DNA of 50,103 bases. Source: a virus. The stretch is from IMG/VR virus record IMGVR_UViG_3300045988_040880; one strand, 5' to 3'. Each line of letters starts with the position of its first letter. Position 1 is the stretch's first letter. Below, one piece after another: positions 3,256 to 50,103 of this stretch. Below the pieces are notes generated by a model. That model did not search any database and was not told the origin of the DNA. It saw only the letters and a list, made by a program, of their open reading frames with translations. Both the position numbers and the translations under genes were made by a program.

Positions 3256-3741
3256 ATGGCAATGAAGAGGTCAGGTAAGTTCTACAGAAAGAATGAAGCT
3301 GAGGTGATGGAATCCCTTGGTCTTAAGCCCACAAAGAACTCAGGTTCCGGTTGGGTTGAAAAGGAAGACGGTCAGTCTGATGATGTTATTTGTCAGCTTA
3401 AGTCAACCGATGCTGAGAGTATCAGAATACATAAAAAGGACTTGGATGTGTTAAGCTACAATGCAGCCGTTGCTCACAAACTACCTGTGTTTGCGATTCA
3501 ATTTCTGCAATCCAATGAGGTTTACTTGTTAGTTAAACCGGATATGCTTTGTGAAGCAGCTCAATACATCGAGACAGGAGAATACACCAGTGCAAATGCA
3601 TTCGTAGGTGTAGATTTAAGTGAGCATGAAGATATGGTCGCAATACCAAAGCGAACAATCAAATCAAGCTCAAAAGCACGTGAACAGTTTCAAAGAGAGA
3701 ATGAACGAAAGTTCAAGAAAGAAAAGAGGTCAGCTACATGA
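3256..3741 (+). CDS. Hypothetical protein, possibly a PD-(D/E)XK-type nuclease or resolvase
   Basis: Pattern 'NSGSGW..KEDG......CQLKST' resembles a D...(E/Q)xK nuclease core. The assignment is weak. Confidence 0.3.
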   Translation: MAMKRSGKFYRKNEAEVMESLGLKPTKNSGSGWVEKEDGQSDDVICQLKSTDAESIRIHKKDLDVLSYNAAVAHKLPVFAIQFLQSNEVYLLVKPDMLCEAAQYIETGEYTSANAFVGVDLSEHEDMVAIPKRTIKSSSKAREQFQRENERKFKKEKRSAT

Positions 3742-4124
3742 TGAACGTAAAAGTTAAAGAGGTCGTGAAGTATGGTGGCCACAGCTTATCGGCAAATGGT
3801 TCGGTAAACTTCACACTTAAAGCTCAGTATTCTGAGTTGCCTAACACAATCAAGCTTATGCAGATGCTCAACAATGATGTGAACATCAAAGCGAAGGTTC
3901 CTGGTGGTAAGCCTATGAAGTTGGGCTTCTTCAGGGTAAAGCAGATTGTCATTGATGGTGATGGTGAATCTACTATCAAGTTCAACGGTCTGAATGACTA
4001 CATTGAAATGGACAATCTGAACCTGCTTCCTCTGAACACAGATGAGAACAAGGAATTTGTGGTTCTTATGGAGGCCGATATTGAAACAGATGAAATGGAG
4101 GAAACAGACGATGGCGAAGAGTAA
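3738..4124 (+). CDS. Hypothetical protein with acidic C-terminus
   Basis: ORF overlaps the upstream stop (ATGA). C-terminal 'EMEETDDGEE'. Confidence 0.6.
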   Translation: MMNVKVKEVVKYGGHSLSANGSVNFTLKAQYSELPNTIKLMQMLNNDVNIKAKVPGGKPMKLGFFRVKQIVIDGDGESTIKFNGLNDYIEMDNLNLLPLNTDENKEFVVLMEADIETDEMEETDDGEE

Positions 4125-4380: not shown

Positions 4381-4438
4381 AATAGGAAATAACTTGAAAA
4401 TATTTTGCAAAAAAGTTCAAAAAGTTTTCAAAAACCTA

Positions 4439-4467
4439 TGTACAAATCAAAAGTTTCGTGGTATAAT
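4439..4467 (+). promoter_or_regulatory. Promoter P2: TGTACA-N17-TATAAT
   Basis: TGTACA at 4439-4444 and TGGTATAAT ending at 4467, with a 17-nt spacer. Upstream A-tract repeats ttcaaaaagttttcaaaaa. Confidence 0.8.
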
Positions 4468-4579
4468 ATATTCAAGAGGTGGTTAAGGAATCCTCAGTCT
4501 AAACCGCATTCGGAAGATAAGTCCTGAGTTCAGGAAAAATCATCAATCAAAAATCAAAATCAGAAAAGGAGAAATCAAA

Positions 4580-7296: not shown

Positions 7297-7827
7297 ATGG
7301 CAGCATGGGAATATTTTACCAGCCAAAAACAGTGGGAGGCATATCTTAAAGACCTCTTAAAAACAAACGACCAAGCGTTGCTCAAATCTATTGTATTGGT
7401 GTATGATAATCAGACTGATGAGGAAAAGAACAAGGGCGAAAGCATTGAAGATAACTGCATCGGATTCAGTAAGATTGATGCCAAGGAAATGGGTGACATT
7501 GCGAAAAAGATAAAAGCCGGTAAGGCGCTTACAAAAGGTGAACTTGCTAAATCACGCAATAAAATGCAGAAGTATTGGAAGCAGTTGATGATTATCAGCA
7601 AGAAGCAGGCAGAGGCCAAGAAGTTGCAGGAGCAAAAGGAACTTGAAGATAAGCTGGCTGAAGAGGTAGCCGCTATCGAAGAGGAAGATAAGTTAAAGCT
7701 TGAGCAGTTTAGGGAACATAATGAAATACTTAGACGTTGCTCTGAAGAGGGTATAGCTTGTAGTTATGGCATTTGCGATGAATGTCCCATCACTACTGGT
7801 TTTCAAATGAGAATGAACCTCGATTGA
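7297..7827 (+). CDS. Hypothetical coiled-coil protein with C-terminal Cys cluster
   Basis: ORF with a GGAGG RBS. K/E-rich helical region and 'CSYGICDEC'. Confidence 0.55.
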   Translation: MAAWEYFTSQKQWEAYLKDLLKTNDQALLKSIVLVYDNQTDEEKNKGESIEDNCIGFSKIDAKEMGDIAKKIKAGKALTKGELAKSRNKMQKYWKQLMIISKKQAEAKKLQEQKELEDKLAEEVAAIEEEDKLKLEQFREHNEILRRCSEEGIACSYGICDECPITTGFQMRMNLD

Positions 7828-7856
7828 GAGTGTTAAGAATAACGGAGGAAAGAAAG

Positions 7857-8519
7857 ATGAGAAGAACACAAATTGAAAAGCAAAGACGTATTCGTCAAAG
7901 GAATCTGGAGAGGGCAACATGCCAGAATCTTATCTATCACGTCATCATTTGTCTATTCATTATGATGGTTGCTTTGTGTGGTGCAGTTGGTAAGTGTATG
8001 GAAAATCCTGAGGATATTGTTGAATCTCAGCATGAGACCACGAGACCTCAGCCTGTTCCTACAATTCAAGTAGATACTCAAGAGGATGAAGTTAAAGCTG
8101 AGGCAGTCATTCCTATGTGTCCTAAGTTTACATATTCAAAAGACTGGGGCTATGAGGATAGCTACCTGCTGGCAAAGATTGCTATGGCAGAAGCTGAAGG
8201 CTGCAACATTCAGACTAAGACTTTGGTCATTATGACCGTGCTAAATCGTGTATGGTCTGATGAGTTTCCTGATACGATTGAAGATGTTATCTTTCAAGAG
8301 TACAATGGAGTTTATCAGTTCACACCCATTGCAAATGGACGATGGAATAGGGTGGAGCCTAATGATGATTGTTGGGAAGCTGTACAGGTAGTTATGGAAG
8401 CAGTCTATGATTATTCTGGTGGTGCACTCTACTTCGAGTCATGTGCTAATGAAGATAATTGGCATAGCAGGAATCTTGAGTTTCTATACGAATCAGATGG
8501 ATTGAGGTTTTATAAGTAA
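7857..8519 (+). CDS. Membrane-anchored SleB-family cell wall hydrolase
   Basis: ATG 7857 with a GGAGGA RBS. N-terminal hydrophobic segment 'LIYHVIICLFIMMVALCGAV'. 'AKIAMAEAEGC...VIMTVLNRV...VYQFTPIANGRW'. Confidence 0.7.
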   Translation: MRRTQIEKQRRIRQRNLERATCQNLIYHVIICLFIMMVALCGAVGKCMENPEDIVESQHETTRPQPVPTIQVDTQEDEVKAEAVIPMCPKFTYSKDWGYEDSYLLAKIAMAEAEGCNIQTKTLVIMTVLNRVWSDEFPDTIEDVIFQEYNGVYQFTPIANGRWNRVEPNDDCWEAVQVVMEAVYDYSGGALYFESCANEDNWHSRNLEFLYESDGLRFYK

Positions 8520-9672: not shown

Positions 9673-9748
9673 AGATAATTCCTTATGCCATCAGTTTGAT
9701 ACTGTCAAAAATAATTTGCAAAAACTTCAAAAACTTTTAAGAAAAGGG

Positions 9749-9777
9749 TGTACAAACCCAAAAGTTTGTGGTATAAT
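9749..9777 (+). promoter_or_regulatory. Promoter P3: TGTACA-N17-TATAAT
   Basis: TGTACA at 9749-9754 and TGGTATAAT ending at 9777. A-tract repeats upstream. Confidence 0.8.
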
Positions 9778-9847
9778 ATAATCAAGGTTAAGGAATGAAC
9801 CTAACCGCAAACTAAAAATCAAATTAAAAGTTCAGGAGGACAAAGTG

Positions 9848-13170: not shown

Positions 13171-14727
13171 ATGTCAGCTGAGAGCATTTACAAGCAACTA
13201 AAGCAAGCTATTGGCAATGACTTTGGTGTGTTTGGTCTTATGGGTAACCTGAAGGCTGAATCGAATCTGCAAGCCAATAATCTTCAGAATACATATTCTA
13301 AGAAGTTTGGTATGACGGATGCTGAATACACTAAAGCTGTTGATGATGGTAGCTATACAAACTTCGTAAGAGACAGTGCTGGCTACGGCTTGGCACAATG
13401 GACATATTGGTCACGAAAGCAGAACTTGCTTAAGTATAAGGAAGCTTATGGTAGCTCAATCGGTGATGAGACAATGCAGGTTGCATTCATGATTGGTGAG
13501 CTTATGGCAAGTTATCCTACTGTGTGGAATGTGCTTAAGAATGCTAAGTCTGTTAGAGAAGCATCTGATGTGGTGCTTACTCAGTATGAGAGACCTGCTG
13601 ACCAGTCCGAATCCGTTAAGGTTAAACGAGCTGCTTTTGGTGAAGAGCTTATGAAGCAGTTGGTTGGTACCACAACTACCGAGGGAAAGGAGGAAACGAA
13701 AGTGGGATTTACGAATAGTCCTTTGGTAGGCTACACGAACATTAGTTCTAAAAAGACTAAAAATCGTAAGTACGATATTACACGAATCACTCCTCACTGT
13801 ATCGTTGGTCTTTGGACTGCGAAAAAGGGATGTGATTACTTTGCAACTACTGACCGTGATTGCTCGGCCAACTATGTGGTTGGTTCTGATGGTGTCATTG
13901 GTCTGAGTGTTGATGAGAAGGACAGAAGCTGGTGCAGTTCTAATGCCGATAACGACAATAGAGCGATTACCATTGAATGTGCTTCTGATGCAAGTCACCC
14001 TTACGCATTTCCTACTATCACTTACAACAAGCTCATTGACTTGTGTGAGGACATCTGTAGGAGATATGGTAAGACCAAGTTGCTTTGGTTTGGTGACAAG
14101 AATAAGTCTCTCAATTACAAGCCGGCTGCCAATGAGATGGTGCTTACTGTGCATCGTTGGTTTGCAGCTAAGAGTTGCCCTGGTGACTGGATGTATGAGA
14201 GAATGGATGACCTTGCAAATGAGGTAACCAAGAGACTTGGTGGTGCAGTTGCTACTAAGCCTGAGGAAAAGGAAGAGCCGAAGGTTGAGCCTACTACAAC
14301 TTCTATCAAGGAAGGTGATATAGTTAAGATTAAGTCTGGTGCTACTTACTACTCTGGCAAAGCAGTTCCTACATGGGTAAGGAATAAGCAGTGGATTGTC
14401 AAGGAAGTTTCTGGTAACAGAGTCGTGATTGATAAGTCTACTGATGGTAAGAACTCCATCTGCAGTCCTGTTCATGCAGACTACTTGACTGTGGTTAAGA
14501 CTACAGCTACCAAGGAACCTGAAACATTCAAACCCTACACTGTAAGGGTTAAGATTAAGGACCTCTACATTAGAAAGGGTCCTGGCACTAACTACGGAAA
14601 GAATGGATTCATTCCTGTTGGTGTTTACACTATCGTTGCAGAGTCCAGTGGAGCTGGTGCTTCTAAGTGGGGCAAGCTCAAGTCTGGCGCAGGCTGGATT
14701 AGTTTGGATTATGTAACGAAAATCTAA
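13171..14727 (+). CDS. Multidomain endolysin: lysozyme-like N-terminal domain, N-acetylmuramoyl-L-alanine amidase domain, and SH3-like repeats
   Basis: 'GLMGNLKAESNL...GYGLAQWTYWSRK'. Amidase_2-like 'ANYVVGSDG...RSWCSSNADNDNRAITIECASD'. Two C-terminal 'G...Y' SH3-like repeats. Confidence 0.8.
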   Translation: MSAESIYKQLKQAIGNDFGVFGLMGNLKAESNLQANNLQNTYSKKFGMTDAEYTKAVDDGSYTNFVRDSAGYGLAQWTYWSRKQNLLKYKEAYGSSIGDETMQVAFMIGELMASYPTVWNVLKNAKSVREASDVVLTQYERPADQSESVKVKRAAFGEELMKQLVGTTTTEGKEETKVGFTNSPLVGYTNISSKKTKNRKYDITRITPHCIVGLWTAKKGCDYFATTDRDCSANYVVGSDGVIGLSVDEKDRSWCSSNADNDNRAITIECASDASHPYAFPTITYNKLIDLCEDICRRYGKTKLLWFGDKNKSLNYKPAANEMVLTVHRWFAAKSCPGDWMYERMDDLANEVTKRLGGAVATKPEEKEEPKVEPTTTSIKEGDIVKIKSGATYYSGKAVPTWVRNKQWIVKEVSGNRVVIDKSTDGKNSICSPVHADYLTVVKTTATKEPETFKPYTVRVKIKDLYIRKGPGTNYGKNGFIPVGVYTIVAESSGAGASKWGKLKSGAGWISLDYVTKI

Positions 14728-17380: not shown

Positions 17381-17457
17381 AGAATATACCTCAAATTAAG
17401 GCTTTGGACATATCTGAAATAAGTTCGAAAATAATTCAAAAAGTTTTCAAAAAGATA

Positions 17458-17486
17458 TGTACAAGTCAGGAAAAATATGGTATAAT
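17458..17486 (+). promoter_or_regulatory. Promoter P4: TGTACA-N17-TATAAT
   Basis: TGTACA at 17458-17463 and TGGTATAAT ending at 17486. Upstream ttcaaaaagttttcaaaaa. Confidence 0.8.
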
Positions 17487-17536
17487 AAATACAAGTGGTT
17501 GGGAGGACCAAATGAAAATCTAAAGGAGGAAATCCG

Positions 17537-27341: not shown

Positions 27342-28253
27342 GTGGTGAGTGTGGTTGAAGGAATCAAGCTCCAAAACGTAGAGACTAGAGCAATTCTTAC
27401 GCTCGATATGGTATCTACTCCGGATTACGTACTTAATTCTGTGGACTGGGGTGCCGTCGAAAGCACCCACCACTCCTATAAGTACGTAAATCAGATTGGT
27501 GTTTATGTAACAGGCACCAGTTTGGAAACAAGGTCTGTTGATATTTCTGGTTGGGTTATCGCAAGCACCGAAAGGGAAATGACCAATCGTAAGACTATAC
27601 TCAATAGATTCTTTAATCCACAGCAGGCAGTTGATTTGTTCTACAAAGATTATGTGTTGAGGTTCTTGCCGAATACTTCGGTTAGATATTCGACAGCTAT
27701 TGCAGAGAACAATGAGGTTGTTTGTAAGTTCAAGGTTGAGGGCTATTGCCCTGACCCGTTATTTAGCGAACAGATGGAAAGTAAGGTAGCAGCTGCAAGT
27801 ACAATTGCAATGTTCCGCTTCCCGTTGATTATTTCACAGACGCCGAATCCTCCTGGAGGCATTGTATTTGGTTTGAGACAGCCGAGTTTGATTGTTGCAA
27901 TCAATAACTCCGGTGCGGTTGATGTTGGTATGAAAATCGTATTCAAAGCTATTGGTACATTACACGGACCGAGCTTAATCAACGTTAACACACAGAAATA
28001 CTTCAAAGTCAATAAGACGATGCAAGCCGGTGAGGAAATCGTTATAAACACGACAATCGGCGAAAAGAAAATCCAAGGCACATTGAATGGTATCACAACA
28101 AACTACTTTAAGTATAGAGACCTTGATAGTGAGTGGCTTCAGCTTTCTGTAGGTGATAATCTTTTTAGATATGATGCCGAGGAAAACGTTGAAAACCTTG
28201 AGGTATATATCTACTTCAACAATAAGTATCTGGAGGTGCAGGAATGTTATTAG
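27342..28253 (+). CDS. Distal tail protein (alternative GTG starts at 27345 and 27351)
   Basis: About 300 aa, directly after the tape measure gene. Confidence 0.55.
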   Translation: MVSVVEGIKLQNVETRAILTLDMVSTPDYVLNSVDWGAVESTHHSYKYVNQIGVYVTGTSLETRSVDISGWVIASTEREMTNRKTILNRFFNPQQAVDLFYKDYVLRFLPNTSVRYSTAIAENNEVVCKFKVEGYCPDPLFSEQMESKVAAASTIAMFRFPLIISQTPNPPGGIVFGLRQPSLIVAINNSGAVDVGMKIVFKAIGTLHGPSLINVNTQKYFKVNKTMQAGEEIVINTTIGEKKIQGTLNGITTNYFKYRDLDSEWLQLSVGDNLFRYDAEENVENLEVYIYFNNKYLEVQECY

Positions 28254-29389
28254 GAAAGCAGATTCAGATACTCGTATTTAAGTTGGACGATTCCGGCACA
28301 TTTGATAACATCGGTGAGGTAAACCAATTCGATAGTTTGATATGGCCGGATAAGTTCAACGGATATGCCAGCTTTGAATTGTGGGCTCCAATCACAGATG
28401 AGAATTCTGAGTATTTTAAGAAAGGCAACATTCTTTGGTGTGGTGGTGATAATGCAGCAATGGTTGAGATTGTAAAATCTACTATTGATGATAAGGGCAC
28501 CAAAACATTCAATGTGAAAGGCCGAACACTTGAGATGCTTTTTACAACTCGAATTATTTGGGGCACATATAATGGCGTAAATAAAGTGGCATCGACTGCC
28601 ATGTATGAGATTGTAAATCAGAATTGTGTAAATCCTACGAATGCGAAACGAAAGATTCCATTCTTAGAGTTGGCTGAGGATAGGCAAATTGGTGGTTTGA
28701 TAACGATACAAAAAACTGGTGGAGAAGTATATGATGCATTAACAACGATTGCATCAAACGCCGACATTGGTTTTAATATGCTTTTCAGACCACGAGAAAA
28801 GAAAATCATCTTTGAAGTAGTTGAGGGTGTTGATAGAACGTCTGAGCAGGATGAAGTTGACCCTGTTGAGTTTAGCACAGACCTTGAAGACATTCTTTCG
28901 AGTTCTTACTATACGAATGACCAGGACAATAAGTCTGTAGCATTGGTTATGGGCGAAGGAACCGGAGCTGAAAGAAAGTCACAAGTTTCCGGTGACAATA
29001 ACTCTTATGGTCTTGGTAGGCGTGAGCTTTATGTCGATGCTCGAGACCTTCAGTCTGAAACTGTGAATGAAGACGGTTCTACTACATCGCTTACCCCTGC
29101 TGAATATAATGAAACTCTTATCAATAGAGGTGATAACAAACTTGCTGAACATAAAGTAACTGAGACTTTCGAAGCTCAGATTCGAGTGTTTGGTGAGGTT
29201 CAGTATGAGTTTGGTGTAGATTACAACAAAGGCGATAAGGTAACAATGCGAGATAAGCAGCTTGGTGTTGTTGTATCTGCACGAATCACAGAAGTCGAAG
29301 AGGACTTCGATGATGAATATGAACTTGTCTTAACGTTTGGATATTCTTATCCGACGATTATGCAAAAGGTGAAACAACAGATAACTTAA
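28244..29389 (+). CDS. Tail-associated protein (siphovirus Gp37-like)
   Basis: Position after the distal tail protein. N-terminal 'FDSLIWPDKFNGYASFELWAP' pattern. Confidence 0.5.
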   Translation: MLLGKQIQILVFKLDDSGTFDNIGEVNQFDSLIWPDKFNGYASFELWAPITDENSEYFKKGNILWCGGDNAAMVEIVKSTIDDKGTKTFNVKGRTLEMLFTTRIIWGTYNGVNKVASTAMYEIVNQNCVNPTNAKRKIPFLELAEDRQIGGLITIQKTGGEVYDALTTIASNADIGFNMLFRPREKKIIFEVVEGVDRTSEQDEVDPVEFSTDLEDILSSSYYTNDQDNKSVALVMGEGTGAERKSQVSGDNNSYGLGRRELYVDARDLQSETVNEDGSTTSLTPAEYNETLINRGDNKLAEHKVTETFEAQIRVFGEVQYEFGVDYNKGDKVTMRDKQLGVVVSARITEVEEDFDDEYELVLTFGYSYPTIMQKVKQQIT

Positions 29390-30391: not shown

Positions 30392-31327
30392 ATGGCAGTA
30401 CTTTCTGTTGAAACAAAGAAAATTCCTGAGTTGGCCGCTACGCTTGACCTTGTTGATAACGATATGATTATCGTTGAGTTGGCGAATGGTGGCACGAGGA
30501 AGATGACGTATGGTGATTTTATCACCACAATCAAAGCTTCTTTGGAATATCCGGATGAAGCAGTGCTTAGTGTGGCAGATGTTGTTGATGTTCAGACAAA
30601 CGATGGAACTAAGATTCCTACAGCTAAGCTCGTATACGATATGCATCAGATTGATGTTGTAATGCGTAGAGAGATGGATTGTTTGAACGGAATCAGAGAA
30701 AAAGGAAATCTCATTAATGTTGATACATTGATGGGTTATGTAAGAGCTGGTGAGCACCATAAGTATGCTATTGGCGATTACTTTGAAGATAACGGTGTTC
30801 AGTGGGCAGTTGTAGCACGTAACTGGTACCCGGCTTGGGCATTTGGTGATGGTGTTGCGAGACCTGAGCATATTGTATGTATGCCTGTAGACTTCTTGGC
30901 AACGTCTTATCAGTTTAACACAACGAATGATAATACCGGTGGTTATGCTGCGAGCTTGATGCCTGCAAATATGGAAACTGAGTACGGTAAGCTTGGTTCC
31001 AATGTTAAGGCTTATTGCAGACAGACTCGTATTTACGAGAATAACAAAGGTGCTTGGGCTGCAGCAATGAGAAGCATGAGACTTCCTACTATTGTTGAGG
31101 TAACCGGAAATCAGGGCTGGGCAAATGAAGGATATTCTGGTGGTGTATGTAGCCAGCTGCCTTTGTGTCAGAACTCTCTTTTCAGGATTCGTTCTACATG
31201 GTATTGGTGTTTAGACCCTTCTTCTGCAAGCTCCGCGTACTTTTGCATTGTCAGCGGCAACGGCTTTGGCTACTACTACGGCGCCTCCAACTCTGGGCGG
31301 GTTCGCCCGCTAATCGTTCTTGCTTAA
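30392..31327 (+). CDS. DGR target protein: tail fibre / receptor-binding protein with C-terminal DUF1566-like (C-type lectin fold) variable domain
   Basis: 'MRLPTIVEV' ... 'YWCLDPSSASSAYFCIVSGNGFGYYYGASNSGRVRPLIV'. The VR occupies codons just before the stop. Confidence 0.8.
   Translation: MAVLSVETKKIPELAATLDLVDNDMIIVELANGGTRKMTYGDFITTIKASLEYPDEAVLSVADVVDVQTNDGTKIPTAKLVYDMHQIDVVMRREMDCLNGIREKGNLINVDTLMGYVRAGEHHKYAIGDYFEDNGVQWAVVARNWYPAWAFGDGVARPEHIVCMPVDFLATSYQFNTTNDNTGGYAASLMPANMETEYGKLGSNVKAYCRQTRIYENNKGAWAAAMRSMRLPTIVEVTGNQGWANEGYSGGVCSQLPLCQNSLFRIRSTWYWCLDPSSASSAYFCIVSGNGFGYYYGASNSGRVRPLIVLA
31230..31309 (+). repeat. DGR variable repeat (VR)
   Basis: 80 nt aligned without gaps to 31983..32062. 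15 differences, all where TR has A. Confidence 0.9.
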
Positions 31328-31336
31328 TCATCAATC

Positions 31337-31356
31337 GTGGCGGCGAAAGCCGACAC
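31337..31356 (+). promoter_or_regulatory. Hairpin with GAAA tetraloop 28 nt downstream of VR
   Basis: GTGGCGGC-GAAA-GCCGACAC, 7 bp with one G/A mismatch. Confidence 0.6.
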
Positions 31357-31381
31357 ATAATGATTCAAAGGAGGAACTAAT

Positions 31382-31948
31382 GTGAGCGTACCAAAATGGA
31401 GAAGGTCTGGGTCTAAGTTGGATGCGTTTTATGAGGCTGTTAAGTTACGACACATTGTAACGCAGATGATAATGCGTTCATACGGAATGAAAACCAAGCA
31501 TAAAAGCTTGATTCCTGATAGACTTAGAGATGAATATCATGACCTTGCAAAATTGTTTGAGAAGATTGATAAGTATCAGACAAAGGTTGAGGAAACTAAA
31601 GTGCTTAGTAAGTATGAGGATTGGATAGTTTCACGAACGAGGAATAATCTCTTTAAGTACACATCAAATTTGGTTGCTCACATCTCAGCCGCTAATGAGA
31701 TTAAGTGTACGCTTGATTTTGAGTTTAAGAAGAGAATTTCACTTGAAGATGAAGCTATAAGTGATATTGCCAATATTAGGCAGGAAGTTCAATTTGTTGA
31801 AGAGTTCTTTGACATTGATTTGAATAAGTACATGGAGTACTCCGAGCAATTGGAGAAAACAAAGAACTATTTGTATCGATGGAAAAAGTCAACTGTGAAT
31901 GAGTATAAGAAGTTCTTAGAAGAACAAAACAACGGAAACGGAGGTTAA
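31382..31948 (+). CDS. avd: Avd-like DGR accessory protein (unusually long, 188 aa)
   Basis: GTG start with an AAAGGAGGA RBS. Basic and helical, lying between VR and TR as in canonical DGRs. Sequence similarity to Avd not verified. Confidence 0.5.
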   Translation: MSVPKWRRSGSKLDAFYEAVKLRHIVTQMIMRSYGMKTKHKSLIPDRLRDEYHDLAKLFEKIDKYQTKVEETKVLSKYEDWIVSRTRNNLFKYTSNLVAHISAANEIKCTLDFEFKKRISLEDEAISDIANIRQEVQFVEEFFDIDLNKYMEYSEQLEKTKNYLYRWKKSTVNEYKKFLEEQNNGNGG

Positions 31949-31982
31949 GGGCCGTTATACCGTGTGTAGGTTATGTGCTGCC

Positions 31983-32062
31983 GCACCACGAACTTTTGCA
32001 ATGTCAACAACAACGGCAATAGCAACAACAACAACGCCTCCAACTCTGGGCGGGTTCGCCCG
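31983..32062 (+). repeat. DGR template repeat (TR)
   Basis: 25 adenines, with AAC/AAT-rich codons in the VR frame (caacaacaacggcaatagcaacaacaacaac). Non-coding position upstream of RT. Confidence 0.9.
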
Positions 32063-32231
32063 ATATCGTATTGATTTGCTAAATGTAGGCAAGAACGACC
32101 GATTAAAATCAAGAACGATAGGAGCACATGACCTTGGCGATTGAGCCTAAAGTGTTTGGTTGATGTGTTTTAGTGCTTGGGCAAAGAAAAGGCTACACTA
32201 AGTAACACTATAAACGGCCAAAATATTTATT

Positions 32232-33395
32232 ATGAGCGACTATGAAAAGATAGCTGATGCTAACAATTTGATGAGGTCAGGTAAGAGATGCATGAAGGAA
32301 ATTTCATGGAAATATTCTACACAAAACTTTTACCTTGACCGAATCAATCGCGTAAGAATCGCAAAAGAACGATTGGAATCGATGGATAGAATGTCTGATG
32401 GTTTTACTGTGTTTAAGATAAATGAACGCGGTAAGATTAGGAATATTCGTTCTGTTCATATAAATGAGCGAATGGTTCAAAAGACTCAATCTGATGTTTC
32501 ATTGATTCCGAACATAAGACCTCGTTTGATTTATGATAACTATGCATCGTTGGAGCAAAGAGGTATATCACAAGCGTTTGATAGACTTAAAGTTCATTTA
32601 CAACGATACTATAGAACTCACGGAACAAATGTTGGTTATATTGCAATGGCCGATTTGCATGCATACTTTGACAGTATAAACCATGATTGTGTGTATGAGC
32701 AATGTAAGAAAGTTCTTGGTCATGACCCGAAAAATTTGTACCTGCTTATGGACTTTGTAGATGCTTTTGGTGATAAGTCACTTGGCTTAGGTAGTCAGGT
32801 ATCTCAAATACTTGCAATCTTTTATCCAAACGAAATTGACCACTTTATCAAAGAGCAATTGAAGATAAAAGGTTATGGTCGATACATGGATGATTTTTAC
32901 ATGATTCATGAGGATAAAGAATATCTTGCTGAGTGCTTACAACTTGTTGAAGGAATGTATGCAGACCTTGGAATCGAGATGAACGTAAATAAGACGAAGA
33001 TATGTCGAATTGATAAAGGCTTCAAATTTTTGAAAGCGAAGATTCATCTCACAGAAACCGGTAAAATAATCATGAGACCTGACCATGCAAGTATTGTTCG
33101 TGAAAGACGAAAACTCAAAAAGTTGAAAGAGAAGCTCGATGCTGGTGAAATTCAGTATAATGAGATTCTTCAGCAATATAAATCATGGAGAGGTTACATG
33201 GAGCAATTTAATTCATACAAAACATTGAAAAGTATGGATGAGTTATTCGATGATTTATTCATAAGACAATGGAGGTGTCAAGAGAATGTCGAACGGAAAC
33301 AACGCAATGACTACGAGTACAGAGTCAAGTTTGGTGAAAAGCAGTATCCTGCTCGCAGACGGCACGGTCTTGAACTTGAATCTGAATGGGACTGA
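32232..33395 (+). CDS. DGR reverse transcriptase
   Basis: 'GRYMDDFYMIH' (YMDD catalytic box), 'LGLGSQVSQILAIFY' (DGR-type GxxxSQ motif), 'ADLHAYFDSINH'. No obvious SD before the ATG. Confidence 0.9.
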   Translation: MSDYEKIADANNLMRSGKRCMKEISWKYSTQNFYLDRINRVRIAKERLESMDRMSDGFTVFKINERGKIRNIRSVHINERMVQKTQSDVSLIPNIRPRLIYDNYASLEQRGISQAFDRLKVHLQRYYRTHGTNVGYIAMADLHAYFDSINHDCVYEQCKKVLGHDPKNLYLLMDFVDAFGDKSLGLGSQVSQILAIFYPNEIDHFIKEQLKIKGYGRYMDDFYMIHEDKEYLAECLQLVEGMYADLGIEMNVNKTKICRIDKGFKFLKAKIHLTETGKIIMRPDHASIVRERRKLKKLKEKLDAGEIQYNEILQQYKSWRGYMEQFNSYKTLKSMDELFDDLFIRQWRCQENVERKQRNDYEYRVKFGEKQYPARRRHGLELESEWD

Positions 33396-33645
33396 GTACG
33401 AGTCCGAAACTCCGATTGCTGATGAAGTTCTCTCCGAGGAGAATCTTTCTAATGTAACAATCGATGATGTGAATAAGGGTAAGATGAAGCTCAATTCAAA
33501 ATATCCTTATAATGGTGGCACTCGTTTCAGTTTGAGAGAAATGACCGAAGATGAAAAAACAATCGAAAGGTTGAACACAGAACTTACTCAGACTCAGGTA
33601 GGTTTGATTGAAGTGTATGAGCTTCTGTTAGGAGGTGAAATCTAA
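33286..33645 (+). CDS. Hypothetical tail-module protein (XkdW-position)
   Basis: ATG 33286 with a GGAGGTG RBS. Overlaps the RT 3' end by 110 nt in another frame. Confidence 0.55.
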   Translation: MSNGNNAMTTSTESSLVKSSILLADGTVLNLNLNGTEYESETPIADEVLSEENLSNVTIDDVNKGKMKLNSKYPYNGGTRFSLREMTEDEKTIERLNTELTQTQVGLIEVYELLLGGEI

Positions 33646-33776
33646 TGGCTGAAGTGTATGCTAGCCTTATTGTTAAAGACATCAAAACTATTGACCAGGT
33701 ACCTGCATCCATTAGAGGTGATGTGAAGCAGGTGCTCATTGATTGGGGCTATCCGGAATTGGCCGGTGATGCCTAA
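33645..33776 (+). CDS. XkdX-like small protein, copy 1 (43 aa)
   Basis: 'MAEVYASLIVKDIKTIDQVPASIRGDVKQVL'. AGGAGGTG RBS and TAATG coupling. Below the ORF-track size cutoff. Confidence 0.65.
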   Translation: MAEVYASLIVKDIKTIDQVPASIRGDVKQVLIDWGYPELAGDA

Positions 33777-33847: not shown

Positions 33848-33973
33848 ATGGCAGAAGTTTATGCTACTCTCATCGTTAAGGGTGTTCGCACCTTTGACCA
33901 GGTACCGGCTGTTATTCAGCCTAAGGTTAAGGCAGTGCTTGAAGCACTTGACCTTGGTGAGCTTGCTCAGTAA
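33848..33973 (+). CDS. XkdX-like small protein, copy 2 (41 aa)
   Basis: 'MAEVYATLIVKGVRTFDQVPAVIQPKVKAVL'. AAAGGAGGA RBS upstream of ATG 33848. Confidence 0.65.
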   Translation: MAEVYATLIVKGVRTFDQVPAVIQPKVKAVLEALDLGELAQ

Positions 33974-33994: not shown

Positions 33995-34303
33995 ATGGAT
34001 AGTCCAATCACTAGAGCTGAGCACGAAGAGTTCAGTAGGAGAATGGAAGAAGAACATAATCGCCAAAATAAGCGAATCGAACTTCTGGAGGAACGAACTG
34101 AGCAATTTACAGATATTGCTATCTCAGTCAAAGAGCTTGCACTTAGTGTAAAGCAAATGGCTGAAACCCAGAAATCACAAGGAGAAAAACTCGAGAAGTT
34201 AGAAGAGCGAGATGGAGAAATGTGGAGAAAAGTGGTTGGGTATATCGTAACAGCAATTGTCGGCATTGTTATCGGCTTCGTGTTCAAGCAAATTGGGATG
34301 TAA
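33995..34303 (+). CDS. XhlA-like membrane protein (coiled coil plus C-terminal TM)
   Basis: Coiled N-terminal region and C-terminal 'VVGYIVTAIVGIVIGFVF'. Follows the XkdX-like genes as in Firmicute phages. Confidence 0.55.
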   Translation: MDSPITRAEHEEFSRRMEEEHNRQNKRIELLEERTEQFTDIAISVKELALSVKQMAETQKSQGEKLEKLEERDGEMWRKVVGYIVTAIVGIVIGFVFKQIGM

Positions 34304-34390
34304 GTTGAATTTTTGATTGATGAGTGTAGGGGTGGTCAGGAGACAGTTCTGGCCGCCCTGAAACTTTTTCAAAAACTTTTCAAAAAGGGG

Positions 34391-34419
34391 TGTACAAATC
34401 AAAAATAATGTGGTATAAT
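34391..34419 (+). promoter_or_regulatory. Promoter P5: TGTACA-N17-TATAAT
   Basis: TGTACA at 34391-34396 and TGGTATAAT ending at 34419. Upstream ttcaaaaacttttcaaaaa. Confidence 0.8.
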
Positions 34420-34474
34420 ATATACAGGTTAAATGATTAGCCGAAAATACTAAAGTGTTCAGGAGGAACGAATT

Positions 34475-39047: not shown

Positions 39048-39555
39048 AGAATCCATAATGAGTGAGTACCCACTCAAGAAGATAATTCGATACAATCATC
39101 GTAGTCGTCTTCAGGATGAAAGTGTTGCTGAACATACATGCTTTGTATCTTTGTTCTGTTTGAAGATTATGGCTCAGCTTAATCTTACTCATGAACAGGA
39201 ACGACAGGTTCTGATTCTTGCTGCATTGCATGATACATGTGAGAGTCGTACATCTGATATTCCTCATGATGTGAAAGCAAACTACCCCGAGATGCAGGCA
39301 ATCCTTGAAAAGATTGAGCATGACTACTACGAAGAAAATTGGAAAACTTATCTCGGAGATGTGTACAAACCCGAACCGATAGTGTATAATATACTTAAGT
39401 TGGCAGATGCCTACAGTGTATACCAGTGGTGCTTGAATGAAAAAGCACTTGGTAATTCTTCTGATTGCATTACCGAAATCTATATTGAGTGTAGGAATCG
39501 TCTTAAGAAGTACATTGGTATTATCAACGAAATAATTGAGAAGGAGGCCAAATAA
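39028..39555 (+). CDS. HD-domain phosphohydrolase (YfbR-like 5'-deoxynucleotidase); start uncertain (39004, 39028 or 39058)
   Basis: 'ESVAEHTCFVS' and 'LAALHDTCESRTSDIPHD'. Confidence 0.65.
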   Translation: MLELLSKESIMSEYPLKKIIRYNHRSRLQDESVAEHTCFVSLFCLKIMAQLNLTHEQERQVLILAALHDTCESRTSDIPHDVKANYPEMQAILEKIEHDYYEENWKTYLGDVYKPEPIVYNILKLADAYSVYQWCLNEKALGNSSDCITEIYIECRNRLKKYIGIINEIIEKEAK

Positions 39556-49697: not shown

Positions 49698-49784
49698 AGC
49701 CTAACGTTATCCCTATTTTCTTTCTTTATATATTTCTTTCTTTTATACCTCTAAAAATATTTTTAAGAAATTTCGCAAAACCTA

Positions 49785-49813
49785 TGTACAAATGAATTTA
49801 TTTGTGGTATAAT
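49785..49813 (+). promoter_or_regulatory. Promoter P8: TGTACA-N17-TATAAT
   Basis: TGTACA at 49785-49790 and TGGTATAAT ending at 49813. Confidence 0.8.
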
Positions 49814-49862
49814 AATTACAGTGGTACAGGTTACCGAATAAATCCTTAGAGGAGGAACACAC

Positions 49863-50103
49863 ATGAGAGAAACAAAAGGAATCTATACAGGTGTTGAGAA
49901 ATGGACTATATGTGAGTTTGAGAGCTTGAAAGAGTTTTACGATTACATTTGCAATCAACCGCTGAATGAAACTTTCAGATGGGGTGAGCTTAGTAGTTCA
50001 AGACGAAGCAGAGATAATTGGTATGGTACAAGCTCATTCAATGAAGCGTCCGACCTTTTCAAGAATGGTTGGCAGTTTGGAGCTGAGGAACTTACAAAAA
50101 AAC
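49863..50103 (+). CDS. 5' part of the wrap-around CDS that continues at base 1 and stops at 686
   Basis: ATG 49863 with an AGGAGGA RBS. Open to the window end and in phase with 1..686. Confidence 0.7.
   Translation, partial: MRETKGIYTGVEKWTICEFESLKEFYDYICNQPLNETFRWGELSSSRRSRDNWYGTSSFNEASDLFKNGWQFGAEELTKK

Follow-up and report, generated by a model that had tools for sequence, protein, structure and literature searches.

What would a reverse transcriptase rewrite when it stands just behind the tail genes of a gut phage? The question is raised by the IMG/VR virus record IMGVR_UViG_3300045988_040880, a stretch of 50,103 nucleotides (the window, one strand, read 5' to 3'), where positions 30,392 to 33,395 hold what had been described, from the letters alone, as a complete diversity-generating retroelement (DGR) rewriting the C-terminus of a tail fibre. 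Analysis of this locus leaves us highly confident that it is a complete, recently active DGR of the type of phage BPP-1. The mismatches between its two repeats are confined to adenines, its reverse transcriptase carries the motifs of the DGR family and has the BPP-1 enzyme as its best solved relative, and populations of related phages vary precisely at the adenine-templated positions. The order of the parts, target gene, 188-aa open reading frame (ORF), template repeat and reverse transcriptase, is that of the original prediction:

30392-31327, + strand: DGR target gene, 311 aa, with an N-terminal attachment or neck region and a probable C-terminal DUF6273 (C-type-lectin-like) domain that ends in the variable repeat
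31230-31309, perhaps extending to 31312, + strand: variable repeat (VR), an 80-nt ungapped match to the template repeat; varying bases at 31232-31300 (codons 281-300)
31382-31948, + strand: Avd-like accessory gene, 188 aa, GTG start, between the two repeats
31983-32062, + strand: template repeat (TR), non-coding, with 25 adenines
32232-33395, + strand: DGR reverse transcriptase (RT), 387 aa (RVT_1, E 2.8e-14; phrog_1423, E 1.7e-67)

The repeats carry the signature of the process. VR and TR align over 80 nt without a gap, and they differ at 15 positions, at every one of which TR has one of its 25 adenines. The total had been counted correctly from the start, while its split had been inverted: A is replaced by T eight times and by G seven times. 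The chance that 15 mismatches would all fall on 25 adenines among 80 positions is 4.9e-10 (hypergeometric). A repeat search made without prior knowledge of the pair recovers it as 83 nt (31230-31312 and 31983-32065), with a sixteenth mismatch that again falls on a TR adenine (C31310 facing A32063). We considered A32063 as a 26th mutagenised adenine and set it aside: position 31310 varies between C, T and A, the A being kept in 7 of 82 proteins, and the exchange of C and T is synonymous. When every TR adenine is replaced by N, the resulting pattern finds two sites in the window, VR and TR themselves, and no site at all when 100 shuffles are searched. We also weighed the idea of a second, remote VR and rejected it, as neither the match to this pattern nor a looser 30-mer scan finds a further copy; the genome holds one VR and one TR.

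The template is also built to be read. In the frame of the target ORF, where VR makes up codons 280 to 306, TR spells ACC ACG AAC TTT TGC AAT GTC AAC AAC AAC GGC AAT AGC AAC AAC AAC AAC GCC TCC AAC, the AAC/AAT design that had been recognised at once, and the corresponding VR peptide, SSAYFCIVSGNGFGYYYGA, does occupy residues 280-298. The adenines of TR sit in 11 AAY codons (AAC or AAT) and in three codons with a single A (ACC, ACG and AGC). Fourteen codons are thus open to rewriting (281-283, 286, 288-290, 292-297 and 300), no change at a TR adenine can reach a stop codon, and the theoretical repertoire is 15^11 x 4^3, that is 5.5e14 peptides.

The enzyme fits this pattern. YMDD stands at residues 218-221 of the RT (nt 32883-32894) and LGLGSQVSQ at residues 184-192, both as predicted. 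Within the latter, LGSQVSQ (residues 186-192, nt 32787-32807) corresponds to [I/V/L]GxxxSQ, the signature motif of DGR reverse transcriptases, where group II intron and retroviral enzymes have QGxxxSP (PMC7826257). The closest relative in the PDB is a 328-aa chain named 'Reverse transcriptase', 8ub7_A (E 2.5e-11). We identify it as bRT, the enzyme of BPP-1, from the agreement of its R74, I181, Q187 and YMDD (213-216) with the bRT residues given in the literature (PMC7826257; PMC3240598). In the alignment of the two proteins LGSQVSQ falls on IGSLTSQ, R70 on R74 and YMDD on YMDD; in bRT, R74 and I181 promote adenine mutagenesis (PMC7826257). The NCBIfam models matched by the RT, all below threshold, were those of group II, Drt3a and retron enzymes. 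At its other end the protein has about 40 last residues that find no counterpart in the 8ub7_A chain. There, at 33286-33395, the RT ORF overlaps the next one, which the gene calls of relatives start at the equivalent of 33334, making an overlap of 62 nt.

Is the system at work in nature? Public assemblies contain 487 homologues of the target protein, many of them on contigs of 47-52 kb, and these allow the question to be asked of a population. When 82 full-length homologues (65-94% identical) are aligned, the entropy of the columns reaches 2.96-3.60 bits at exactly codons 283, 286, 288-290, 292, 294-297 and 300, which are the 11 AAY codons, and stays at or below 1.7 bits in the remaining columns of the target. 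Codon 300 is AAC in the window's VR and TR alike, yet it too is variable among the homologues. Codon 293 (AGC) shows little variation, with Ser in 89% of the proteins, which points to selection. Within VR, divergence has reached saturation, at about 10 of 20 residues, regardless of how far the backbones have diverged, including in 12 protein pairs with identical backbones. At the nucleotide level, two contigs (L015 and L017), colinear for 4900 nt, have 26 differences there, of which 18 lie in the 80-nt VR (17 of them at a TR adenine) and 8 in the other 4820 nt (Fisher p 1e-27); their TRs are identical. Ten distinct pairs of VR and TR lying in cis give 125 mismatches at TR adenines (A to G 60, A to T 42, A to C 23) and four elsewhere, all four at the first or last position of the repeat. 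This means that 125 of 250 adenines, or 50%, were changed, which matches the 52% misincorporation at adenine measured in vitro for the bRT-Avd complex (PMC7826257). The VRs of these pairs were among those fetched through an anchor in their 3' flank, uninformative on the variable part, to avoid circularity. Among the 15 distinct VRs of that set all 25 A-templated positions are variable, and 13 of the 15 related cassettes have an identical TR, with VRs that all differ. An invariant template facing hypervariable copies is thus seen directly, and, contrary to what would speak against a DGR, the VRs of the homologues are not invariant and their variation is confined to A-templated positions. Left out of the mismatch tallies were L002, which has neither avd nor TR, and L003 and L028, whose VRs contain 3-nt indels; these loci have no bearing on the genome studied here.

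Some of these relatives are of interest in their own right. In locus L002 (IMGVR_UViG_3300045988_034027), within the last 283 nt before the RT, a deletion has joined the start of the accessory gene, its first codons, directly to mid-spacer sequence between TR and RT; avd, TR and half of the spacer are gone, while VR, hairpin and RT are kept. This is a naturally disabled DGR, with its VR frozen. Loci L003 and L032 (IMGVR_UViG_3300029852_000012, 2937-2998 against 3711-3769) combine a VR of the window's lineage, with a 3-nt insertion, and the TR and RT of the L001 lineage. Their GC-rich 3' elements differ, non-adenine mismatches are present and the VR does not derive from the TR beside it; this looks like a recombinant in which the repeats no longer match. 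In locus L025 (OBKS01002647.1) the TR, normally invariant, has GGC in place of AAC at the position of codon 300, a rare change, and the VR of the same contig also has GGC; conversion of TR by VR is possible, as is a chimeric assembly.

At the 3' end of VR and just past it, the locus has two elements that might set the direction of transfer:

31295-31309, + strand: GC-rich 3' end of VR, GGGCGGGTTCGCCCG, identical in TR (32048-32062)
31337-31356, + strand: putative target-site hairpin or cruciform, GTGGCGGC-GAAA-GCCGACAC, 27 nt after the end of VR

Past GGGCGGGTTCGCCCG the repeats diverge, VR continuing with CTAATCGTT and TR with ATATCGTA, and the element itself is unvarying in all related VRs, save for position 31309 in two of them. 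By analogy with the initiation of mutagenic homing (IMH) sequence of BPP-1 (PMC3240598), the element and the diverging sequence are likely to form an IMH and IMH* pair, which would set the direction of transfer. The hairpin has a GC-rich stem of 8 positions, with 7 pairs and one G/A mismatch, closed by a GAAA loop; the DNA fold of 31280-31385 has a z-score of -4.0. It is kept in all relatives, and in the divergent L001 lineage the stem is perfect (GTGTCGGC/GCCGACAC). The published consensus for target sites of phage DGRs is a GC-rich stem of 7-10 bp with a 4-nt GRNA loop, placed 4-34 bp from VR, and retrohoming in BPP-1 requires both the structure of the stem and the sequence of the loop (PMC3240598). 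The window's hairpin fits this consensus, distance included, and a role at the target site is accordingly put forward as putative.

The accessory protein is harder to place. Its match to phrog_3206, 'Avd protein of DGR', has an E value of 0.0074, and the same family is matched by 25 of 43 members of the accessory family, at best with E 2.6e-6. The AlphaFold2 (AF2) model (pLDDT 87.5) is an all-helical bundle, for which Foldseek returns 2gsc and 2rld as best matches by TM-score (probability 0.99, TMt 0.78-0.79, at E values of about 1). These two structures are four-helix bundles of the 23S-rRNA-IVS/S23 family, and Avd is placed in the same superfamily. No NCBIfam model matches the protein. Comparison by hhalign of the accessory profile with the single candidate Avds of two distant loci (L010 and L014), themselves barely recognisable as Avd, finds no similarity. 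With weak evidence from sequence and further evidence from the fold, we call the protein Avd-like, a putative member of the Avd family with an N-terminal extension.

The region between TR and RT is more than a gap. It contains the following elements:

32063-32231, + strand: TR-RT spacer, 169 nt, probable counterpart of the BPP-1 'Sp' RNA
32064-32069/32115-32120, 32136-32138/32145-32147, 32165-32175/32196-32208 and 32058-32060/32216-32218, + strand: conserved spacer helices (RNAalifold)

Blocks of the spacer are preserved even between cassettes with no more than 57-72% identity in their RTs and accessory proteins, those of Lachnospiraceae prophages included. An alignment of 11 cassettes from about six lineages, a small sample that makes the evidence good but not final, yields a consensus structure of 25 pairs, in which 98.9% of the alignment cells are paired; sliding the 3' partners by one to three columns lowers this to 33-51%. 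Covariation is seen at eight pairs, where both partners have changed, and six of these belong to the 11-bp helix 32165-32175/32196-32208. The helix UAUCGU/ACGAUA (32064-32069/32115-32120) is invariant and begins one base past the end of the TR/VR match, while 32058-32060/32216-32218 joins the 3' end of TR to the distal spacer. No Rfam family matches the region 31200-32400. The primer for cDNA synthesis in BPP-1 is the 2'-OH of A56 in the spacer; A56 pairs with U118 of TR, the neighbour of G117, where templating begins, and base pairs between TR and spacer are required (PMC6182149). By analogy, we predict A32120 as the priming nucleotide, with cDNA starting at A32063 or G32062. It is possible, though somewhat less likely than not, that the spacer belongs to a conserved, structured class of 'DGR RNA' in DGRs of Clostridia phages and prophages, which, together with the enlarged 188-aa Avd-like protein and the unusually short 5' homology of TR and VR, would define a distinct mechanistic subclass of the DGR ribonucleoprotein.

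Borrowing from BPP-1 the priming of cDNA, the roles of Avd and hairpin and the consequence for receptor binding, one may picture the cassette at work. It would be transcribed with the late or tail operon, since no separate promoter stands out within it (promoter-like sites are as numerous there as in shuffles). RT and Avd-like protein would bind the RNA made of TR and structured spacer, and TR would be copied into cDNA with random bases inserted opposite about half of its 25 adenines. This cDNA would then replace VR, the direction being given by the common GC-rich 3' element, by the divergence that follows it and by the GAAA hairpin. As an outcome, the 14 codons of the DUF6273 or C-type-lectin-like domain would be rewritten free of stops, into up to about 5.5e14 peptides.

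What, then, is being diversified? The target gene closes the tail module, as the fourth after the tape-measure gene, and is preceded by Dit (27342-28253; SPP1_Dit, Sipho_tail), a Sipho_Gp37 tail protein (28244-29389) and a 315-aa structural protein. In its AF2 model (pLDDT 83.5) VR is made up of two strands (283-287 and 293-297) and the turn that joins them. Foldseek matches in the PDB are weak: the top one is the IgA peptidase of Thomasclavelia ramosa, 9qa6 (E 2.8e-3), followed by Legionella Lcl-C, 8q4e (E 0.029, TMt 0.48), CD23 and other C-type lectins. Matches among predicted viral structures are strong (E 4e-16 to 1e-8) and include gut phage proteins named DUF6273, 'Receptor Binding Protein' and 'Tail-collar fiber protein'; those named DUF6273 range from E 3.5e-10 to 5e-6, and the top ones, at E 4e-16, are unnamed gut-phage proteins. 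In Pfam the window's own protein matches neither DUF1566 nor DUF6273 at E <=1, with a spurious CDC24 as sole return, NCBIfam yields no match, and a PDB sequence search with the target profile gives no meaningful one. Of its homologues, 34 of 47 have a sub-threshold match to DUF6273 (PF19789; best E 1.2e-4), three carry a precomputed PF19789 match, and one of 47 matches DUF1566/Lcl_C (PF07603; E 0.076). The label 'DUF1566/C-type-lectin-like' first given to the domain is therefore half retained: PF07603 has no match in the window protein, and a C-type-lectin-like fold agrees with the weak resemblance to Lcl-C and CD23 and with what is described of such domains (PMC10743442). Sub-threshold Pfam matches in homologues and strong viral fold matches make it reasonable to regard the variable domain as DUF6273, C-type-lectin-like. 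DGRs whose VR stands at the C-terminus of a DUF6273 domain are already on record, from Faecalibacterium prophages and from tentaclins (PMC11792537; PMC10743442). Some homologues retain the C-terminal 71-74% of the protein and have different, longer N-termini. Swapping of N-terminal modules ahead of a kept C-terminus is frequent in receptor-binding proteins. That the C-terminus of the last tail-module gene is diversified can be seen in the DNA; 'tail fibre' and 'tropism switching', as originally worded, had been drawn from gene position. Because the target is the last protein of the tail module, rewriting of VR would likely alter what the phage binds.

Hypervariability alone does not make a DGR, as receptor-binding proteins are commonly hypervariable and mosaic, and the homologues do swap N-terminal modules; ordinary recombination, with positive selection on a receptor-binding loop, might then be at play, the TR-like copy being a chance or duplicated fragment. 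However, 125 of the 129 mismatches in cis pairs fall where the second copy has an A, and this copy is invariant, non-coding and adjoins an RT with the DGR signature; the chance of the window's adenine pattern is about 5e-10. The adenine pattern, the invariant TR and this probability effectively refute such an explanation. More has to be said of the possibility that the cassette of this particular genome is a recently silenced fossil, its VR and TR recording past activity of the lineage. To be sure, several observations pull away from a complete, active DGR. TR and VR share only 2 nt of homology 5' of the first adenine, and codons 281 (93% Thr) and 282 (70% Thr) are less variable among the 82 homologues than the 50% or so expected, which fits frequent 5' resolution inside the repeat, for example at CTTTTGC. 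The accessory protein has no Pfam match, even to the bAvd model, and no PDB sequence match, whether searched as protein or as profile. An exact look-up of the window's target protein finds no record elsewhere, activity in this very genome is read from its relatives, and decayed or mismatched systems in the clade (L002, L003) show that loss does occur. A fossil would agree with such decay, L002 being devoid of avd and TR and L003 having a VR at odds with its own TR, as well as with the minimal 5' homology and with a TR of 80 nt against 122-127 nt in the Lachnospiraceae prophage relatives. Yet all parts of the window's cassette are intact, without frameshift or stop; its RT is 100% identical to RTs of relatives whose VRs differ, its TR recurs unchanged in 12 other cassettes whose VRs are distinct, and contigs of near-identical backbone that share this short TR have almost all their differences in VR. 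Recent silencing is thus very improbable.

A different doubt accepts the DGR and bears on its object. The target might be an adhesin of the virion surface, Hoc-like or tentaclin-like, binding mucus or other glycans without any switch of host range. DUF6273 is indeed also found in tentaclins and Hoc-like decoration proteins (PMC10743442; bioRxiv 10.64898/2026.05.08.723808), the bacterial IgA peptidase 9qa6, top PDB match of the target's fold, has the domain as well, and the role of the target in adsorption is putative. We nevertheless hold this to be unlikely, given that the target stands at the distal end of the tail module, directly after Dit, the Sipho_Gp37 protein and the structural protein, that the homologues exchange N-terminal modules and retain the C-terminal domain as receptor-binding proteins do, that fold matches include a 'Receptor Binding Protein' and a 'Tail-collar fiber protein', and that the AF2 model contains no Ig-like repeats. 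The preferred reading remains that of an active DGR acting on a tail protein likely to determine binding.

How does this DGR compare with those already known? With that of BPP-1 (mtd-avd-TR-brt) it shares the order of a target with C-terminal VR, accessory gene, TR and RT, adenine-only mutagenesis at about 50% per adenine, the AAY codon design, [I/V/L]GxxxSQ and YMDD, a common GC-rich 3' element followed by divergence of the repeats, an 8-bp GC hairpin with GAAA loop 3' of VR, and a spacer RNA with a helix adjoining the 3' end of TR. By contrast, its RT is distant from bRT, as the best PDB E value of 2.5e-11 indicates (the other distant DGR RTs in the loci compared are only 29-34% identical), its target has a DUF6273 domain in place of Mtd, and its accessory protein, at 188 aa, falls outside detection by the Pfam bAvd model, where bAvd has about 128 aa. 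The TR is of 80 nt and not 134 nt, the hairpin is 27 nt away from VR when that of BPP-1 is a few nt away, and the probable host belongs to the gut Clostridia, that of BPP-1 being a proteobacterium. Other close counterparts are the DGRs of phages and prophages of Faecalibacterium/Oscillospiraceae and Lachnospiraceae (Lelie, CP11, Roos and Pioen; FP01; phages bearing tentaclins), which likewise have VR at the C-terminus of DUF6273 and hosts among Clostridia (PMC11792537; PMC10743442). The Lachnospiraceae prophages have an accessory protein 57-64% identical to that of the window, the same layout and nearly the same TR core, ACGAACTTTTGCAAT.TCAACAACAA.GGCAA, and Faecalibacterium phage FP01 also has two small CD1375-family genes beside its DGR, whereas its order is accessory gene, RT, target. 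Loci L037-L044, from Lachnospiraceae genomes and metagenome-assembled genomes (MAGs) such as Acetatifactor aquisgranensis DSM 110981 and Lachnospiraceae bacterium 50-23, lie on contigs of 61-375 kb and are taken to be prophages. Their repeats measure 122-127 nt, with about 45 nt of 5' homology, and contain 10-15 mismatches each, all at TR adenines; repeats in the clade of phages of about 50 kb (window, L001, L036) measure 79-83 nt.

The genome that carries the cassette differs from these prophages in being that of a stand-alone phage. The first 99 bases of the window are repeated exactly at 50005-50103, as a direct repeat, which makes it a complete genome (50,004 bp), assembled as a circle or terminally redundant. 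Every gene lies on the same strand; among the products are TerL, an SPP1-type portal, an HK97-like capsid protein, Pol III alpha, primase, RecA and ThyX. Among ORFs of at least 300 aa there is no integrase, the scan having covered these, the tail and DGR region (27-34 kb) and seven ORFs of 187-290 aa elsewhere. The relatives are stand-alone contigs of 47-52 kb, and contigs with an RT 100% identical to that of the window measure 49.7-50.1 kb and were binned with MAGs of Clostridia and Oscillospiraceae. Comparison with the INPHARED phage collection (megablast and tblastn) finds no nucleotide or protein match. These bin labels, together with the related cassettes of Lachnospiraceae prophages, suggest a host among the gut Clostridia. 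A 'virulent Firmicute phage', as proposed at the outset, is plausible in view of the absence of integrase among ORFs of at least 300 aa and of the labels.

Other traits of this genome may be recorded. A promoter-like repeat has seven copies on the + strand (about 717-790, 4398-4480, 9720-9800, 17417-17500, 34360-34440, 39343-39400 and 49754-49820), each made of an A/T-rich TTCAAAAACTTTTCAAAAA, TGTACA, a 17-nt spacer and TGGTATAAT (an extended -10); the copies precede gene modules, and the DGR cassette contains none of them. The small ORFs that trail the DGR region (the last ends at 34303) are separated from the next of these repeats by a strong terminator-like hairpin (34329-34359), so that the late operon probably ends there. 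Just 3' of the RT are two paralogous small genes, 33645-33776 (43 aa) and 33848-33973 (41 aa), with the shared pattern MAEVYA.LIVK...DQVP and 73% identity over 62 nt, one of them CD1375-like according to a precomputed Pfam match in a relative. A 518-aa protein with Phage_lysozyme2 and Amidase_2 domains is encoded at 13171-14727, between the genes for the large terminase and the portal, an unusual position for a lysin, and a second cell-wall hydrolase (Hydrolase_2) at 7782-8519.

The locus is canonical, DGRs with C-type-lectin-like targets are common in gut phages, and our knowledge of DGRs is unchanged by it. The newest angle is the putative structured class of spacer RNA with its enlarged Avd-like protein, in a system that is not categorically new. 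What the locus adds is one well-documented, apparently active DGR to a clade of uncultured gut Clostridia phages of about 50 kb. The many near-identical relatives in public data make up a natural data set on mutagenesis per adenine and on selection in the wild. The same clade would be useful for working out the rules of sequence and structure of the TR-spacer RNA and of the target hairpin outside the Bordetella model, and for linking VR variants of DUF6273 to host or glycan specificity.

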